Source: Minisyncoccota bacterium (GTDB lineage: Bacteria > Patescibacteriota > Minisyncoccia > Phycocordibacterales > CAJBRS01). Taken from it: a DNA stretch of 60,641 nt. Below the pieces are notes generated by a model. The model worked only from the letters and a program-made list of their open reading frames with translations. It had not been told where the DNA came from and did not search any database. The position numbers and the translations under genes are program-made. The stretch lies in contig DASRDX010000009.1 of the NCBI GenBank assembly GCA_035652395.1, positions 1-60,641 on the forward strand, written 5' to 3'. Shown piece by piece: positions 3,001 through 59,419 of the stretch. The number at the start of each line of letters is the position of its first letter. Within the stretch, counting starts at the first letter, position 1.

Positions 3001-3162
3001 GGCACTGGGGAAAGCGCGAGCTCGACTAGTGACAATGGTGCGAGCGCTTCTTCCACAGAAACAGTTTCTTCAGAAAGTGGTACCTCTACGGGAAATACTA
3101 TTGAGCCTGCGCCCCCTACAACTGAGAGTGGTAGTTCTAGCGATTTGGGATCAGGAAACTAG
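1..3162 (+). CDS. Giant Cys-rich YadA/Hep_Hag-like repeat fibre protein with peptidase S74 (intramolecular chaperone) domain; 5' end lies outside the window
   Basis: Frame +1 is open from base 1 (GSPSQADVQNLQGQITNI.., homologous to the paralog at 41430). About 14-aa repeats of type SSAFGxCNxASG; S74 signature ASDRNLKEN..W.YK..HIGPVAQD; Ser/Thr-rich tail. Confidence 0.85.
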   Translation, partial: GSPSQADVQNLQGQITNIQNNVTNIQNNFSTNVNSLNPIVVGFGNSATGLNASALGFRNTSSGNYSTAVGYCNTSSASCANTFGFCNLANSLCSTAIGFRNNVCVVGGYTAGINSVAIGNRNAATGGSAVAIGVNNFAPGAQSVAMGMGNKACALAGYGATASGYYNTTCACKATAMGLGNLASGGLSIALGNCNIASGDCSSASGYTNIASGLSSVAVGFCNTAAGGADSVGGYKNAVCLSSFSSAFGACNTVSSQRSSAFGYLNNATGGAGNISIGNLNSVTSAGFNGDSYSSALGSCNSIGGYRSTALGLCNSLPSYDSVAVGGSNTSSIGANLATLVGYHNTGCGSFSTAVGYSNVSCSDSVAVGVQNIACGIDSSAFGSGNTASGCCSSTSGFRNTASIYNSSAFGLCNVACNNHSSSFGALNTASGAGSSALGFANMASGQNSAAFGANSLASADGSLAIGSGSASGYSFQDLRTTASGINSVSVGTNSGYYGVANTASGCESVAIGVANTASSYYSVSVGKSNSVSGLYAGISSAFGVCNTVSDYATRSSASGYRNFVGASRSTASGYLNTAMGFSSSAIGVSNCVCGTGLNSSAFGNCNIASGCSSSAFGFSNTASGYFSSAFGYHSTACGTQSSALGYLNTTSGNYSVSVGTCNTASGSFASALGSRQNAASGDFSIAAGYHNTSSGGNSSAVGFFNTASGGCSSASGFLNAASACLSSAFGACLSNATSSTSLIGVCNGWLSINGNKSVLASNGACLSTGGTWTNASDRNLKENFTTLDGEDILNKINSLPVTEWNYKSEDSTVKHIGPVAQDFYETFHVGNSDKSISTIDPAGIALVGIQALSKKVDNQNASTTAALASLDIRVSSIESLTNLANAHTSLGGEILGALQSFGAEVVDGIAYLKNVFVENLTAKKADIQKLNVNKGFQIIDSDTGEVYCVTLHSGEFQKDKGDCPDPAANSTSTPSTSSGTIITVDSNNNTVIVPDAAGGGTGESASSTSDNGASASSTETVSSESGTSTGNTIEPAPPTTESGSSSDLGSGN

Positions 3163-3163
3163 A

Positions 3164-3200
3164 AATCAAAAAGCCCCGCCGACGGCGGGGCTTTTTGATT
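3164..3200. terminator. Bidirectional intrinsic terminator between convergent genes
   Basis: Perfect 17-bp inverted repeat aatcaaaaagccccgcc-gac-ggcggggctttttgatt with A/T tracts on both sides. Confidence 0.9.
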
Positions 3201-3546
3201 AGGAAACTTTTTCCAGAATTCTTTTAAAAGTATTCGGAGACTCGAGCGCCAAAGTGGCCAAAGTCTTGCGGTCATAACCCAATTTATTTTTCTTTAAAGC
3301 GCCGATAAACTTGCTGTAAGATGGGCCACCGTGTTCTTTCAGAGCGGCATTGATTCGAACATTCCACATTCGGCGAAAATCACCTTTCTTATCACGACGA
3401 TGAGCAAAAGCGTAAGTGCCGGCATGAGAAATAGCTTCAATAGCCTGCCTTTCTTTTTTTGAGCGGCCAAATCGGTAACCTTTAACTTGTTTTAAAACAT
3501 TGCGACGACTTTTTAGGGCGTGCACCCCCTTTTTCACTCTAGTCAT
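3199..3546 (-). CDS. rplT: 50S ribosomal protein L20 (bL20)
   Basis: MTRVKKG..KGYRFGRSK..AYAFAHRRDKKGDFRRMWNVRINAA; follows rpmI and infC. Confidence 0.98.
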   Translation of the reverse strand: MTRVKKGVHALKSRRNVLKQVKGYRFGRSKKERQAIEAISHAGTYAFAHRRDKKGDFRRMWNVRINAALKEHGGPSYSKFIGALKKNKLGYDRKTLATLALESPNTFKRILEKVS

Positions 3547-6195: not shown

Positions 6196-7251
6196 ATGAA
6201 AAAATTAGATTTATATTTTTTAATTCTCTTAATTTTTATTCCCGTTACTTTGGTGGCCGATTGGGTCGGGGTTTCGCCCGTTTATTTATTTTTCGTCTCG
6301 GCTCTGGCTATTATTCCACTGGCAAAATACATAGGAGAAGCTACCGAGGAATTAGCCACGCACAGCAATCCGGCTATGGGGGGCTTTCTCAACGCCACTT
6401 TTGGTAATGCCACCGAATTAATTATCGGAATCTTTTCTTTGAGAGCCGGTTTAATTGAAGTGGTGAAGGCTTCCATTACGGGTTCTATTTTAGGCAATCT
6501 TTTGCTGGTGCTTGGCATGGCCATGTTTTTTGGTGGGCGACGTCACAAAAAACAGGAGTTCAATAAAACGGCGGCCAGTGCCAGCGCTTCAACCTTAATT
6601 CTTACCATGATTGCCTTTGTCATTCCGGCCATTTTTTTAACCACCGACCCCGGCATTTCGGATATCGTGGTAGAGAAGTTAAGTATTTCGGTGTCGATCT
6701 TAATGATCATTATTTATTTCTCCAGTCTGCTTTTTTCTCTTTACTCCCACAAACATCTTTACACTGAAGAAGTGGGCAAGTATGAACCGAAATGGAGTAT
6801 TTCCAAAAGCACCATTATTTTAATTCTAGCTACTCTTGGTGTAGCCACTATGAGCGAAATTTTAGTTTCATCCATTAATCCGATTGTTACTAGTCTCGGT
6901 TGGTCGCCGCTTTTCATCGGAGTGATTTTTGTCGCTTTGATTGGAAACGTGGCGGAACACGTCTCGGCCATTACCGTGGCGATGAAAAACCGGATGGATC
7001 TTGCTATTCAAATTACCATTGGTTCGGCTACCCAAATTGCCATGCTGGTAGCGCCTCTTTTAGTTATTTTTAGTCTATTTTTTCCGACGCCAATGACTTT
7101 AGTTTTTGAAACTTTTCAATTGATCACTATTATTCTTTCGGTGATTGTAGTAAGTGGAGTTGTGCAGGATGGCGAAAGCAATTGGTTTGAAGGACTGCAG
7201 CTAATGGTGGCCTATGCCATTATGGCCGTGGCCTTCTTTTTTCATCCGTAA
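6196..7251 (+). CDS. cax: Calcium/proton exchanger (CaCA family)
   Basis: Alpha-repeat motifs GGFLNATFGNATE, GSILGNLLL, GNVAEH, GSATQIA; about 11 TM segments. Confidence 0.93.
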   Translation: MKKLDLYFLILLIFIPVTLVADWVGVSPVYLFFVSALAIIPLAKYIGEATEELATHSNPAMGGFLNATFGNATELIIGIFSLRAGLIEVVKASITGSILGNLLLVLGMAMFFGGRRHKKQEFNKTAASASASTLILTMIAFVIPAIFLTTDPGISDIVVEKLSISVSILMIIIYFSSLLFSLYSHKHLYTEEVGKYEPKWSISKSTIILILATLGVATMSEILVSSINPIVTSLGWSPLFIGVIFVALIGNVAEHVSAITVAMKNRMDLAIQITIGSATQIAMLVAPLLVIFSLFFPTPMTLVFETFQLITIILSVIVVSGVVQDGESNWFEGLQLMVAYAIMAVAFFFHP

Positions 7252-8650: not shown

Positions 8651-8706
8651 AAATACAAATTAGAGGTTCCCCGAAAAAATTCGAGCCGATTAATCGAATT
8701 TTTTCG

Positions 8707-9103
8707 GGGGATGCCAGGCATCGACAGCTGGTCAACTCTAATATGTGCAAAGTGGAGCACTCTGAACTCCTAAATCTCGGAGAAAGCCTAAGTGCAAAAA
8801 ACTTAGCATCGAGGATCTCACCGTATTTTACGGCTAAAGATTTTCAATTCGCCTACGCTTTAGCGTAAGTGACACCCGCGAAGAGGCCTTCCGTAACTCT
8901 TCCAGTGGTGTTATATCTTCGGAATAGGATCGCGCGAAGCCGAGCGCGCGAGCCCGAATAATTAACGGCTCGAGGAAAGAAGGTTTTGTTTGTTTCCGAC
9001 TTCTTTCGTCTAAATTGTCGCAAGACAAAGAAATAAACTAAACTTTGTAGATTCATTTTAGAAAATCAGTTGCACGCGCGTTCAATTCGCGCCATCTCCA
9101 CCA
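8707..9103 (+). ncRNA. ssrA: tmRNA
   Basis: 5' GGGGATG pairs with 3' CATCTCC-ACCA, including the G3:U Ala identity pair. TCGAC after the 5' stem; T-arm gcgcg-ttcaatt-cgcgc; internal tag ORF ending ..AYALA-stop; directly after smpB. Confidence 0.95.
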
Positions 9104-32541: not shown

Positions 32542-33249
32542 ATGGCCGATGATGATAATAAAAAAGAGTCTGGGTCCGAGCTCGCCACCACTATTTTTGA
32601 AATAGTTTTCATTCTTATTATTTTTATTTATTTTCTAAATCAGGTCGGTGTTTTTATTTCCAGACACTTCTATTCGATTAATCAGAACGGAGCAACCAGC
32701 ACGGCTGCCACTTCCTCGGGCATTTCGTTGTTGTTTTCCTCCATTGGGCATGGCTTTAGCAGCGGTTTTGCCCGAATTTTTCCGACTATTGAACTTCTGG
32801 CCATTTTTATTTCCGTCTTATTTTTAATGGGAGTGATTTATATTTTATTCAGACTCCATTATCTGGAGAGATTTCAGCGCGCGCGGGAGAAACGAGAGAG
32901 AACCATTAGAAGCGGATCAGTGGAAGTACCAAAGGGAAATATAAAATGGCAGAGAGTTCTGGATCATGTTAACAGTGAGAACCCGAATGATTGGCGTCTG
33001 GCCATTTTGGAAGGGGACATTTTATTAGGGGATTTGCTGGAGAAAATGGGTTATCACGGAGAGGGAATTGGCGAGATGTTGAAATCAGTAGAAAAGAGCG
33101 ATTTTAATACCATTGATAACGCTTGGGAGGCTCACAAAATTCGAAATGCCATTGCTCATGAGGGCGCCGACTTCATTTTGTCACAGCGTGAAGCACGTCG
33201 GGTGATCGCTCTCTACGAGAGCGTCTTTCAGGAATTTCATTTTATTTAA
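32542..33249 (+). CDS. Hypothetical membrane protein
   Basis: Two TM helices, then W..V..H..S.NPNDWRLAILEGDILL..AWEAHKIRNAIAHEG (helical domain with a RxxxxH, HEPN-like motif). Confidence 0.7.
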   Translation: MADDDNKKESGSELATTIFEIVFILIIFIYFLNQVGVFISRHFYSINQNGATSTAATSSGISLLFSSIGHGFSSGFARIFPTIELLAIFISVLFLMGVIYILFRLHYLERFQRAREKRERTIRSGSVEVPKGNIKWQRVLDHVNSENPNDWRLAILEGDILLGDLLEKMGYHGEGIGEMLKSVEKSDFNTIDNAWEAHKIRNAIAHEGADFILSQREARRVIALYESVFQEFHFI

Positions 33250-33250
33250 T

Positions 33251-33285
33251 TAACAAAAAATCCACCAAAGGTGGATTTTTTGTTA
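33251..33285. terminator. Bidirectional terminator
   Basis: taacaaaaaatccacc-aaa-ggtggattttttgtta, between a convergent CDS and tRNA. Confidence 0.9.
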
Positions 33286-33292
33286 TATCTTG

Positions 33293-33363
33293 TTGCGGGG
33301 CCCGGATTTGCACCGGGGCCTGGAGGTTATGAGCCTCCCGAGCTACTGTTACTCCACCCCGCT
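33293..33363 (-). tRNA. Initiator tRNA-fMet(CAU), non-canonical
   Basis: AGCGGGG/CCCCGCA with an unpaired 1:72, A11:U24, GGAGG-CTCATAA-CCTCC anticodon arm; only 71 nt. Confidence 0.88.
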
Positions 33364-33438
33364 AAAAATTGTGGAGATTTTCAAATATACTCTAACTTTA
33401 TTTTAATTGCAATTAAGGTTATATTAGTTGAACTTAAT

Positions 33439-33511
33439 GTCGGGGTAGCTCAGTTGGTAGAGCACGGGACTCATAAGCCCGGGGTCGTGGGTTCGATCCC
33501 CACCTCCGACA
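33439..33511 (+). tRNA. tRNA-Met(CAU), probably elongator
   Basis: GTCGGGG/CTCCGAC acceptor, loop CTCATAA, TTCGATC T-loop; Ile2 not fully excluded. Confidence 0.85.
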
Positions 33512-33537
33512 CTCGTATTTTGTAAAATACGAAAGTT

Positions 33538-33611
33538 GCGGCCATAGCTCAACTGGTTAGAGCACTCGCCTGTCACGCGAGAGGTTGGCGGTTCAAGTCC
33601 GCTTGGCCGCG
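33538..33611 (+). tRNA. tRNA-Asp(GUC)
   Basis: GCGGCCA/TGGCCGC acceptor, CTCGC-CTGTCAC-GCGAG anticodon arm, G73. Confidence 0.95.
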
Positions 33612-33785
33612 CAATTAAAAAATCCGGCAAGTCTGTCCGGATTTTTTAATTGCGCGGCCAAAGCAAGCAAACTGCTTTGCTTGCGTGCGGACTTGAAAGG
33701 CGCAGCTATGTTTTCTCAGTAGAGAAAACAAGCGAGCCGGGGTCGCGACCGAGCTCTGCAGAGCGAGAGTTGTGACCAAGTCCGC
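33592..33785. repeat. tRNA-Asp-linked nested inverted-repeat element
   Basis: 33603-33627 is the exact reverse complement of 33637-33661; 33592-33602 of 33687-33697; 33687-33694 of 33778-33785; three internal hairpins. Confidence 0.85.
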
Positions 33786-33854
33786 AAGACATATTTTCCG
33801 CTTGTCTTTCTATTTCATGCTAGAATAAAAATCTTATCAACTATTCTCAAAAAT

Positions 33855-34616
33855 ATGTTTTACATTATCGGAGTCATCGTTCTTATATTAGTTCTTCTAT
33901 CTTTGCGGGTAGTAAAAGAATACGAAAGGGGAGTGATCTTCTTTCTCGGCAAGTACACCAGCGTGCGCGGGCCCGGTCTGATTTTTCTCATTCCTGTTTT
34001 TGAGCAGATGACGCGCGTCACCTTGCGGACGATCACCATGAACATTCCTTCACAGAAGATTATCACTAAGGACAATGTCTCAATTGATATCGCCGCCGTC
34101 GCCTACTATCACATTGTTGATTCATCCAAGTCTGTTATCTCAATTGAGAATGTCTACAGCGCCGTCAATCAAATTAGCCAGACCACTGTACGAAATGTTG
34201 TGGGCCAATTTCAACTCGATCAGCTTCTTTCGCAGACTGTCGATATCAATACTCAAATTAAAAATGTTATTGACACTCACACCGAGCCTTGGGGCGTGCA
34301 GGTAACGGCGGTGGAAATCAAAGATATCACTTTGCCCGACAACATGCAGCGAGCCATGGCCAAGGAAGCCGAAGCCGAACGAGAAAGACGGGCCAAAATT
34401 GTGGCAGCTGAAGGAGAATTTCAGGCAGCGGTAAAACTGGGAGAAGCGGCTGACATTATCAGCGCTCATCCGGTGGCTCTGCAGCTTCGCACTCTTCAGA
34501 CCATGTCGGAAATCAGCACTGAAAAAAATTCCACTATTATTTTCCCGGCTCAATTTATGACGAGCGTGCAGGAGGCGTTTAAGACTCTAGCCGCTGACAA
34601 TAAAAAGACCGGTTAA
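33855..34616 (+). CDS. SPFH/band-7 (stomatin-like) protein
   Basis: [60 protein letters not shown]. Confidence 0.93.
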
Positions 34617-59373: not shown

Positions 59374-59419
59374 AAGCGGCCGTCAAGCATTTTGCTAGCA
59401 AAATGCTTGACGGCCGCTT
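59374..59419. repeat. Perfect 46-bp loopless palindrome
   Basis: aagcggccgtcaagcattttgct|agcaaaatgcttgacggccgctt. Confidence 0.92.

Follow-up and report, generated by a model that had tools for sequence, protein, structure and literature searches.

Why should a bacterial tRNA gene be followed by an antisense copy of its own 3′ end that is interrupted by one hairpin and extended by others? This question is raised by the tRNA-Asp gene in a 60,641-nt contig from a Minisyncoccota bacterium (GenBank assembly GCA_035652395.1, contig DASRDX010000009.1), and the whole of this stretch is termed the window in the following. The best explanation that emerged from our analysis is that the window contains one type-A copy of a widespread family of small, non-coding insertion modules occurring mostly in Patescibacteria. 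A hairpin (H1) and a structured core constitute the inherited part that the copies share, while two antisense arms and a direct repeat are specific for each locus and matched to the local tRNA; the copies turn over, stack and decay. Sequence comparison suggests a non-autonomous mobile module at the 3′ ends of genes for tRNA and transfer-messenger RNA (tmRNA), which would encode a structured RNA and derive its arms and repeat from its target, a reading to which we assign a probability of roughly one half.

Anatomy of the module behind tRNA-Asp

The tRNA-Asp(GTC) gene occupies 33538-33611/12 on the plus strand, as do all parts of the module described here (ARAGORN; Rfam RF00005, 70.8 bits), and it does not encode CCA. 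The portion that is copied, designated X, is the 3′ part of the tRNA at 33592-33611, corresponding to tRNA positions 54-73. A repeat finder revealed a perfect 25-nt inverted repeat with a 9-nt loop (33603-33627 and 33637-33661), the longest inverted repeat within the window, which consists of a 16-nt A/T-tract palindrome and a 9-nt extension into the acceptor strand. The inner 16 nt, termed LH (arms 33612-33627 and 33637-33652, loop 33628-33636), are of the terminator type and have the same style as the other terminators of this genome, A/T-tract palindromes of 16-18 nt; the terminator scan missed LH (33612-33652) because its loop comprises 9 nt. The extension, arm5 (CGCGGCCAA, 33653-33661), is the reverse complement of 33603-33611, that is, of T65, the acceptor 3′ strand and the discriminator, and it prolongs the LH palindrome in register. 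Between arm5 and the second antisense arm lie an A, H1 and GT (33662-33686), which were delimited by the repeat finder and have counterparts in relatives; H1 itself, GCAAGCAAA-ctgc-TTTGCTTGC, spans 33663-33684 with a stem formed by 33663-33671 and 33676-33684 and the loop CTGC. The antisense copy then resumes with armT (GCGGACTTGAA, 33687-33697), the exact complement of 33592-33602, which comprises the T-loop and the 3′ strand of the T-stem (positions 54-64).

Downstream of armT follows the type-A core (33698-33776), as defined by the minimum free energy (MFE) fold and by RNAalifold on 24 type-A elements. The MFE fold of the window copy predicts a helix P3 (33699-33701/33736-33738 and 33705-33707/33731-33733), a hairpin H2 (33709-33730) and a long stem H3 (33741-33749/33769-33777, with two G.U pairs), the tip of which is a gctctgcagagc hairpin at 33753-33764. 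The multibranch structure is closed by a helix of 33686-33694 with 33778-33786, in which armT pairs with the direct repeat. This direct repeat, CAAGTCCGC at 33777-33785, equals tRNA positions 56-64 (33594-33602); in the window it retains 9 nt only, and its acceptor half is missing. The adjoining stretch, 33786-33810, comprises a degenerate remainder of the repeat and flanking sequence, delimited by the repeat finder and by short similarity to the trailers of relatives. It contains a small hairpin, AAGACA...TGTCTT, and TCCGCTTG at 33797-33804 repeats 33598-33605; we tentatively note that its AAGAC.. seems to resemble the tRNA-Asp trailers of two relatives (loci L202 and L203), a similarity that is short. 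Compared with shuffled sequence, the fold is markedly stable, with z = -10.8 for 33538-33800 and z = -5.6 for 33654-33800.

Every element listed in a preliminary description of this locus was recovered at its position by the repeat finder and the fold, and its statement that this is not a plain terminator is borne out. An intrinsic terminator alone fails to account for a repeat that runs 9 nt further into the tRNA, resumes with 11 nt after H1 and is then followed by a conserved core. What the preliminary description had overlooked is that 33777-33785 is a direct copy of the tRNA. A self-cleaving ribozyme of the hammerhead or another type was also considered and rejected, as only A and GT flank H1 and no Rfam ribozyme model matches. 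Within the window, the core motifs have no further copies, and the antisense arm was not found at the six other tRNA genes or the tmRNA gene, so that one of seven tRNAs carries a module. The second-longest inverted repeat in the window is a perfect palindrome of 23+23 nt without a loop at 59374-59419 (AAGCGGCCGTCAAGCATTTTGCT/AGCAAAATGCTTGACGGCCGCTT). A 16-nt palindrome of the terminator type at 8669-8709 ends, with its right arm, in the GGGG that opens the tmRNA gene at 8707; the upstream smpB terminator thus overlaps the 5′ end of the tmRNA.

A module family behind tRNA and tmRNA genes

A blastn comparison of the region behind the tRNA with loci retrieved via a neighbouring SPFH gene yielded a match at locus L006, where tRNA-His is followed by a terminator, the antisense of the acceptor strand, a near-identical H1, the antisense of the T-loop and T-stem and a two-hairpin core, and where the module ends with a 14-nt direct copy of the 3′ end of tRNA-His itself. 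When the H1 pattern GCAAGCAAA-N4-TTTGCTTGC was scanned over one genome per species, at least 120 loci were retrieved, and among the matches listed nearly all belong to Patescibacteria and a few to Elusimicrobia. For 74 oriented H1 matches, an ARAGORN tRNA with a recognisable T-loop ends 6-61 nt upstream, with about 20 tRNA identities represented. Where no ARAGORN tRNA was present, Rfam identified tmRNA as the partner gene in four loci and, at L086, a tRNA-Asp that is split by a group I intron. The search for tRNA-matched arms with a common scaffold that the preliminary description had proposed was thus positive for essentially every tRNA identity and for tmRNA. Exact-match scans for the 5′ end of the core in genomes, for the 3′ half of tRNA-Asp in metagenomes and for the H1 pattern in viral contigs returned no matches.

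In order to count arms independently of H1, we examined 231 of 242 ARAGORN tRNAs, namely those in which the T-loop was recognisable and the sequence continued for at least 80 nt downstream, for the reverse complement of positions 54-65 with at most two mismatches within 140 nt downstream. Antisense arms were present behind 93 of the 231 tRNAs versus one of 231 in a reversed control; the rate was 5/41 in loci that had been chosen otherwise than through H1. Although the genomes of Patescibacteria are tiny and streamlined, a structured module, mostly of about 150-250 nt where the direct repeat could be placed, stands behind about one in four tRNA genes of the element-bearing loci. H1 is non-canonical in 34 of the 93 arm-bearing tRNAs. 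A hairpin of 9-10 bp was detected in 22 of these 34 and none in eight, and the 22 variants have loops of 3-4 nt and compensatory changes in the stem (e.g., GAAAGCAAA/TTTGCTTTC, GCACACCAA/TTGGTGTGC and GAACAGTGC/GCACTGTTC).

On the tRNA strand, the order of parts is tRNA, trailer with terminator-type palindrome, arm5, A-H1-GT, armT, core, and a direct repeat that starts from C56. The trailer and palindrome are missing in 12 of 74 elements, and at such terminator-less loci the element begins 6-17 nt after the tRNA. Across the family, arm5 is the reverse complement of positions 66-73 plus trailer, the break at H1 always lies between positions 64/65 or 65/66 (74 elements), and armT matches the reverse complement of positions 54-65 with a mean of 10.4/12 identical nucleotides (at least 10/12 in 58 of 74 elements). 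The direct repeat, starting at C56, reaches or passes the discriminator in many loci (up to 24 nt); its length ranges from 3 to 24 nt overall, and its identity is 18/18 in 16 of 74 elements. From position 66 to the loop, the palindrome is perfect over at least 20 nt in 10 of the 74 elements; in the window copy it reaches 25 nt.

Identity amounts to 78% for arm5 and 77% for the acceptor part of the repeat, and the decay of the two is equal and independent (crosstab 17/16/25/16). Where X and the direct repeat differ, the arms agree with X at 82 positions and with the repeat at seven. Because decay is independent and the arms track the tRNA, the acceptor-side arm and the outer repeat look like products of installation that drift later, and for the same reasons a minihelix of arm and repeat was rejected as the main selected structure. 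The parts that look maintained, as judged from the alignments, are H1, armT and the core. Behind tRNA-Ala, arm5 reads GGACC.. and not GGGCC.., so that an A stands opposite U70 as the complement of the 3′ strand; the G3:U70 pair is the identity pair of alanine tRNA. A tandem tRNA paralogue or an aminoacylatable minihelix is ruled out, as it is the 3′ strand that the arm complements at acceptor positions without Watson-Crick pairing. Ten loci (L126, L152, L158, L162, L174, L187, L190, L193, L194 and L200) share a sub-variant of armT with ..GA(T/C)GAGAA instead of ..GATTCGAA, which is not a plain copy of the target given that two mismatches, opposite G57/A58 of the T-loop, are fixed in it. At L114, L117, L127, L136, L156 and L174, a 13-nt insert, A(A/G)TGTACTCA(T/C)G(G/T), splits the direct repeat between its T-loop-derived and T-stem parts.

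At least four types of core exist, including A-D. RNAalifold on 24 type-A elements recovered H1, the closing helix, P3, H2 and H3, with double compensatory changes at 21 of 34 pairs; one G.U pair, which adjoins an A-G mismatch in H3, is kept in 22 of the 24. The right junction (..GAC|C) falls within the base of H3 (G118-C180 and G119-C179 of the RNAalifold alignment). On the tRNA strand, G.U pairs outnumber A.C pairs by 46 to 7, and the plus strand gives a more stable fold than its complement in 47 of 51 elements (p = 1e-9). The folded strand is the tRNA strand, given this excess of G.U pairs and the better folding of the plus strand; the predicted structures are compatible with either RNA or single-stranded DNA as the folded molecule. 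Rfam 15 at the gathering threshold reported only tRNAs and the tmRNA in the whole window, only the tRNA and chance hairpin matches for 33200-34000 at E<=10, and nothing over the elements in eight loci with types B, C and D at E<=1. Literature searches, which included the H1 sequence, retrieved no description either, and the family, which the preliminary description had considered might match a known one, is apparently undescribed.

Turnover is evident from cores that are 84-90% identical behind different tRNAs and combined with re-matched arms (L171 Gly/L196 Asp, L143 Tyr/L144 Phe, L143 Tyr/L173 Ser); the palindromes of such pairs, with cores about 85% identical, are unrelated. Two relatives of the window locus were found by synteny via the upstream gene. 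At its orthologous tRNA-Asp, L203 carries a type-D element with a different H1 and a perfect 20-nt repeat, and L202 has a terminator, an arm-like match of 7 nt and the 3′-terminal sequence of a type-A core (CTTTAGTAACTC), and looks in sequence like the decayed remnant of an element. A clean empty site was found in neither of these two. Nested arrays occur at L092, L130, L186 and L199, and tandem units, in which the repeated unit includes palindrome, arm5 and H1, at L118, L146 and L194. The armT of nested type-A copies complements the 11 nt before their palindrome, whatever sequence stands there; within these 11 nt, trailer sequence is preceded by the final 2-5 nt of the tRNA or displaced fragment (e.g., CGCAGTTAGGT), and the closing helix comprises only 3-7 bp. 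The last 2 nt of armT covary with the 2 nt to the left of the junction (AA for T54T55, CG for ..CG|CAG..). In one copy, L199 E1, H1 is missing and the arms run on uninterrupted. The structure is kept, with compensatory changes, in copies related by vertical descent (L145, L173 and L198).

Some further observations concern the partner genes and host contigs. Group I introns split the anticodon loop of tRNA-Asp at L086 (2360-2602, minus strand; Rfam) and, by sequence reading, at L199 (~1810-2040), and a group I intron at 3060-3272 (minus strand; Rfam) of L203 lies about 1 kb from a tRNA cluster; lineages with group I introns in or near tRNA-Asp also bear the 3′ modules. At L178, a 'tRNA-Stop' with the anticodon TTA according to ARAGORN ends about 48 nt before H1 (7057-7078, minus strand) and bears a module. 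The 3′ part of this tRNA (T-arm and acceptor 3′ strand) closely resembles tRNA-Lys(TTT) of L136 and L188, and the tRNA may represent a mutated tRNA-Lys or a tRNA of the ochre-suppressor kind. Module-bearing contigs at L084, L093, L104 and L152 are titled Campylobacterales, Leptospira, Gammaproteobacteria or Bdellovibrionales and may be mis-binned contigs of Patescibacteria or represent genuine spread outside the phylum. LOOT RNA (RF03000, 71-73 bits) is present at L137 (2057-2175, minus strand), about 100 nt past the module that follows tmRNA, and at L117 (564-680, plus strand). At 3467-3640 of L202, the 5′ half of a minus-strand tRNA-Met recurs in part behind the tRNA (..CGAGCTACTGTTACTCCACCCC), a tRNA-fragment duplication of another kind than the modules.

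Mobile module or resident RNA

According to the reading that we favour, a complete unit would consist of the tRNA up to T55, X (56-73), the trailer with its palindrome, the reverse complement of X with H1 inserted about 12 nt before its end, the core, and a copy of the tRNA from C56. The site of insertion would be either the T-loop, at the 55/56 boundary, or the very 3′ end of the tRNA or tmRNA gene, and an intact gene and a displaced-looking 3′ fragment would be left behind. The antisense arm would form a 12-bp 'foot' helix over the left junction, comprising 2 nt of flank and about 10 further nt, and the right junction would lie in the base of H3, so that both junctions would be located in helices adjoining the conserved core. 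The core may be required, as RNA or as a folded single strand, for mobilisation by a factor encoded elsewhere, and the acceptor-side arm and the outer repeat would be by-products of installation that decay later. We also entertain, tentatively and with the odds against it, the idea of a new class of nucleic-acid-programmed elements for tRNA and tmRNA genes, in which a scaffold of RNA or folded single strand would be kept and two antisense segments around H1 and one sense segment would be rewritten from the target upon each move; such an element might 'copy the target into the guide' or provide a dual-strand guide for a putative recombinase, nuclease or reverse transcriptase of Patescibacteria, and in both cases it would differ from a passive relic and from an ordinary micro-island with an integrase.

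Several points weigh against mobility. It is deduced from comparative patterns only, and the analysis turned up neither an excised form nor a truly empty site nor a helper enzyme. With its own tRNA 3′ end on board, a unit would have difficulty in reaching a different tRNA, yet near-identical cores reside there, and we know of no mechanism for the local re-templating of two arms that are parted by a conserved hairpin. Simple fold-back copying, which accounts for arms in register, was rejected, as it fails on H1 and would yield arms without H1 as seen in L199 E1. Terminator palindromes do not travel with the cores, which is a better fit to insertion downstream of a native terminator; with direct repeats, however, T-loop integration and post-terminator insertion are equivalent, being circular permutations of one description. 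The strand tests rest on structure that was predicted on the plus strand and are hence somewhat biased. Finally, high prevalence and the retention of structure in the vertically inherited copies would fit a host function equally well.

This leads to the possibility of a host non-coding RNA family of about 100-150 nt that is co-transcribed with the tRNA and excised by RNase P, RNase Z and the CCA-adding enzyme via a minihelix resembling acceptor and T-stem, the arms pairing with the direct repeat and the core having a cellular role. The covariation-supported core on the tRNA strand, its prevalence and the compensatory changes in orthologous copies (L145, L173 and L198) speak for such an RNA, as do the terminator-less loci, where a start 6-17 nt past the tRNA makes co-transcription likely, and the position of H1 at the point where the D/anticodon domain leaves the acceptor-T stack. 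We nevertheless consider it unlikely: the acceptor-like helix is not co-conserved, with arm5 and repeat decaying independently and the acceptor half of the window repeat gone, the sequence of the arms tracks the live tRNA instead of the repeat, their supposed pairing partner, the closing helix shrinks to a few base pairs in nested copies, and the majority of copies stand behind a terminator-type hairpin. The A opposite U70 in arm5 of tRNA-Ala, moreover, means that the G3:U70 pair is absent and with it any aminoacylation mimic, and the differing core types at orthologous tRNA-Asp genes are hard to square with a fixed host gene. Decidedly doubtful is a nucleic acid-guided system in which the antisense arms and the sense repeat would guide to both strands of the 3′ end of the tRNA gene, in the manner of IS110 bridge RNAs, TnpB right-end RNAs or the exon- and intron-binding sites (EBS/IBS) of group II introns, the core would serve as a protein scaffold, and the match to the tRNA would reflect guide-directed insertion or homing. 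The combination of a conserved scaffold and variable segments covarying with the flank is what marks guide-directed elements, armT pairs over the junction including 2 non-repeat nt that covary with the flank, the core and the 18-24 nt of flank behind it resemble a scaffold and its guide, and the conserved G.U beside the A-G mismatch of the predicted H3 may look like a protein site. Set against this are the lack of a candidate effector nearby and of a match to an Rfam guide-RNA family, arms that extend the local palindrome in register (perfect over at least 20 nt in 10/74) and appear copied at the locus and not imported, and right flanks that match the arm over 3-7 nt only in ectopic copies. 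Since the tRNA is intact, guide and target would coexist in one genome, and mutational retargeting of 20 nt at three places is implausible.

The preliminary description had offered cis-antisense control of tRNA 3′ maturation, in which read-through arms would pair with the T-arm and the acceptor 3′ strand and the repeat would act as a competitor strand. The MFE fold of 33538-33800 indeed sequesters the 3′ half of the tRNA in a branched hairpin of 36 bp, the arms track the live tRNA sequence, and two mutually exclusive pairings, of the arms with X or with the repeat, are possible. This proposal fares poorly and is very unlikely: the arms lie downstream of a terminator-type hairpin, arm5 (~78%) decays at the neutral-looking rate of the repeat, an arm at a gap of 2-8 nt cannot fold back onto the adjacent acceptor strand, the 'target' of nested copies is a trailer or the end of another element, and only some tRNAs per genome bear arms (one of seven in the window). 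Fold-back or quasi-palindrome template switching can lengthen hairpins, and the H1-less L199 E1 would suit passive products of template switching at terminator palindromes; alternatively, functionless units could be deletion remnants of integrase islands or prophages that kept attL and attR and lost the interior, with which a direct repeat from the T-loop and a tmRNA target, both typical of integrase islands, would agree (PMC4383910). Such origins are likewise very unlikely, as most placed units have about 150-250 nt and all possess one of about four covariation-supported cores, no longer, gene-bearing version was seen among the at least 120 loci, and the strict alternation of arm5, H1, armT, core and repeat could arise only if template switching had struck precisely four times, and had done so in hundreds of independent cases. 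Practically negligible, lastly, is a fold-back chimera or assembly artefact, which the preliminary description had named as a way in which its interpretation might fail. Chimeric reads can yield perfect 25-nt inverted repeats, but 33430-33870 is 100% identical in an independently built Logan contig from different assembly software, and the same architecture recurs with diverged sequence in more than 100 unrelated metagenome-assembled genomes, which excludes it.

What is at stake is how inherited parts (H1 and core) came to be interleaved with copies of the neighbouring tRNA (two antisense arms and one sense repeat). Either a templating mechanism rewrites about 40 nt at three places, or a guide-based machinery chooses tRNA genes; either answer, if true, would be a new use of tRNA genes by mobile DNA or RNA and possibly a programmable targeting principle. 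On the practical side, the modules give rise to tRNA-fragment annotations and to long palindromes in assembled genomes, which could be taken for artefacts or pseudogenes, and they are a ready covariance-model target for surveys.

Neighbouring genes and comparison with known systems

The elements are non-autonomous. The units contain no open reading frame (ORF), and clustering of 590 ORFs within 3.5 kb of elements revealed no enriched protein cluster and only scattered housekeeping genes, in agreement with the non-autonomous element that the preliminary description had envisaged. A Pfam scan of the 146 nearest proteins detected two Xer-like integrases, and no transposase or reverse transcriptase family is among the 25 most frequent of 198 neighbour families. 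In the window, the preliminary statement that no integrase is nearby holds for the Pfam-annotated parts (~1-21, 30.8-37.6 and 45-60 kb), in which integrases, transposases and reverse transcriptases are lacking; ~21-30.8 and 37.6-45 kb are unannotated.

Integration into tRNA genes was reportedly assigned to a T-loop sublocation by Williams in 2002. Integrating elements classically target genes for tRNA and tmRNA, restoring the gene and leaving a displaced piece of it behind (PMC4383910). The modules resemble genomic islands and prophages that tyrosine integrases insert into tRNA and tmRNA genes, as defined by Islander, in their targets, in the intact gene, in a direct 3′ copy from the T-loop at the far end and in serial or tandem occupancy (PMC4383910). 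A regenerated tRNA or tmRNA gene with its displaced 3′ fragment as a direct repeat is present here as well, and the exclusion of an att site in the preliminary description was therefore too strong, because the element ends in a direct tRNA repeat from the T-loop that is like such a displaced fragment (PMC4383910). An integrase as the other hallmark of islands was not encountered, given ORF-less units, two Xer-like proteins among the 146 nearest neighbours and no enriched cluster. Unlike islands, the modules are gene-free and only ~150-250 nt long, they possess a hairpin-split inverted tRNA copy and a structured core, and one and the same core occurs behind many tRNAs.

Miniature inverted-repeat transposable elements (MITEs), cis-mobilizable elements (CIMEs) and the palindrome-associated transposable elements (PATEs) of the IS200/IS605 group are likewise small, non-coding, multi-copy and hairpin-rich, decay in place and are presumably mobilised in trans. 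In contrast to MITEs, the modules lack fixed terminal inverted repeats and a fixed short target duplication: their ends are locus-specific tRNA sequence, their repeats are 18-24 nt of local tRNA with lengths of 3-24 nt overall, and no cognate transposase was identified. In IS608, internal guide bases that stand at the foot of subterminal hairpins pair with the cleavage sites and thereby allow TnpA to read them. The modules are similar to IS200/IS605 elements in that their junctions lie in helices with internal sequence, the 2 nt left of the junction covary with the 3′ end of armT and the arrangement is strand-specific; they differ by a pairing of 12-25 nt versus 4 nt, a long direct repeat and the absence of a Y1 transposase or TnpB nearby. 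Correspondingly, none of these proteins is among the 25 most frequent neighbour families, and no IS605-type Rfam model matched.

A conserved scaffold combined with segments that match the insertion flank is shared with IS110 bridge RNAs, TnpB and IscB guides and the EBS-IBS pairing of group II introns. However, recombinase, nuclease, reverse transcriptase and ribozyme domains are missing, and size and fold are unrelated. Bridge RNAs would call for an adjacent gene for a DEDD/serine recombinase and for two internal loops that each pair with both strands; an adjacent ORF is lacking, and, unlike bridge or guide RNAs, both arms of the module pair contiguously with one strand and prolong a local palindrome in register. 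By analogy with the attP(+) hairpin of CTX phage and with integron attC sites, the X-loop-X′-cargo-X topology may be seen as the expected product of the integration of a folded attachment site; conservation of structure over sequence and an extrahelical feature, to which H1 might correspond, are further likenesses. In contrast to these systems, the target is a tRNA gene and not dif or attI, neither IntI nor a link to Xer is apparent, and the cargo is a structured non-coding core. A bipartite antisense around a hairpin on a contiguous target, imitating the acceptor/T-stem stack, also recalls the H/ACA pocket and RNase P external guide sequences. The module differs from H/ACA RNAs by the lack of a closing lower stem and an ACA box and by an acceptor-side arm without visible selection, and to our knowledge bacteria do not have H/ACA proteins. 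An inverted copy of the target split by a hairpin is a feature of none of the known classes.

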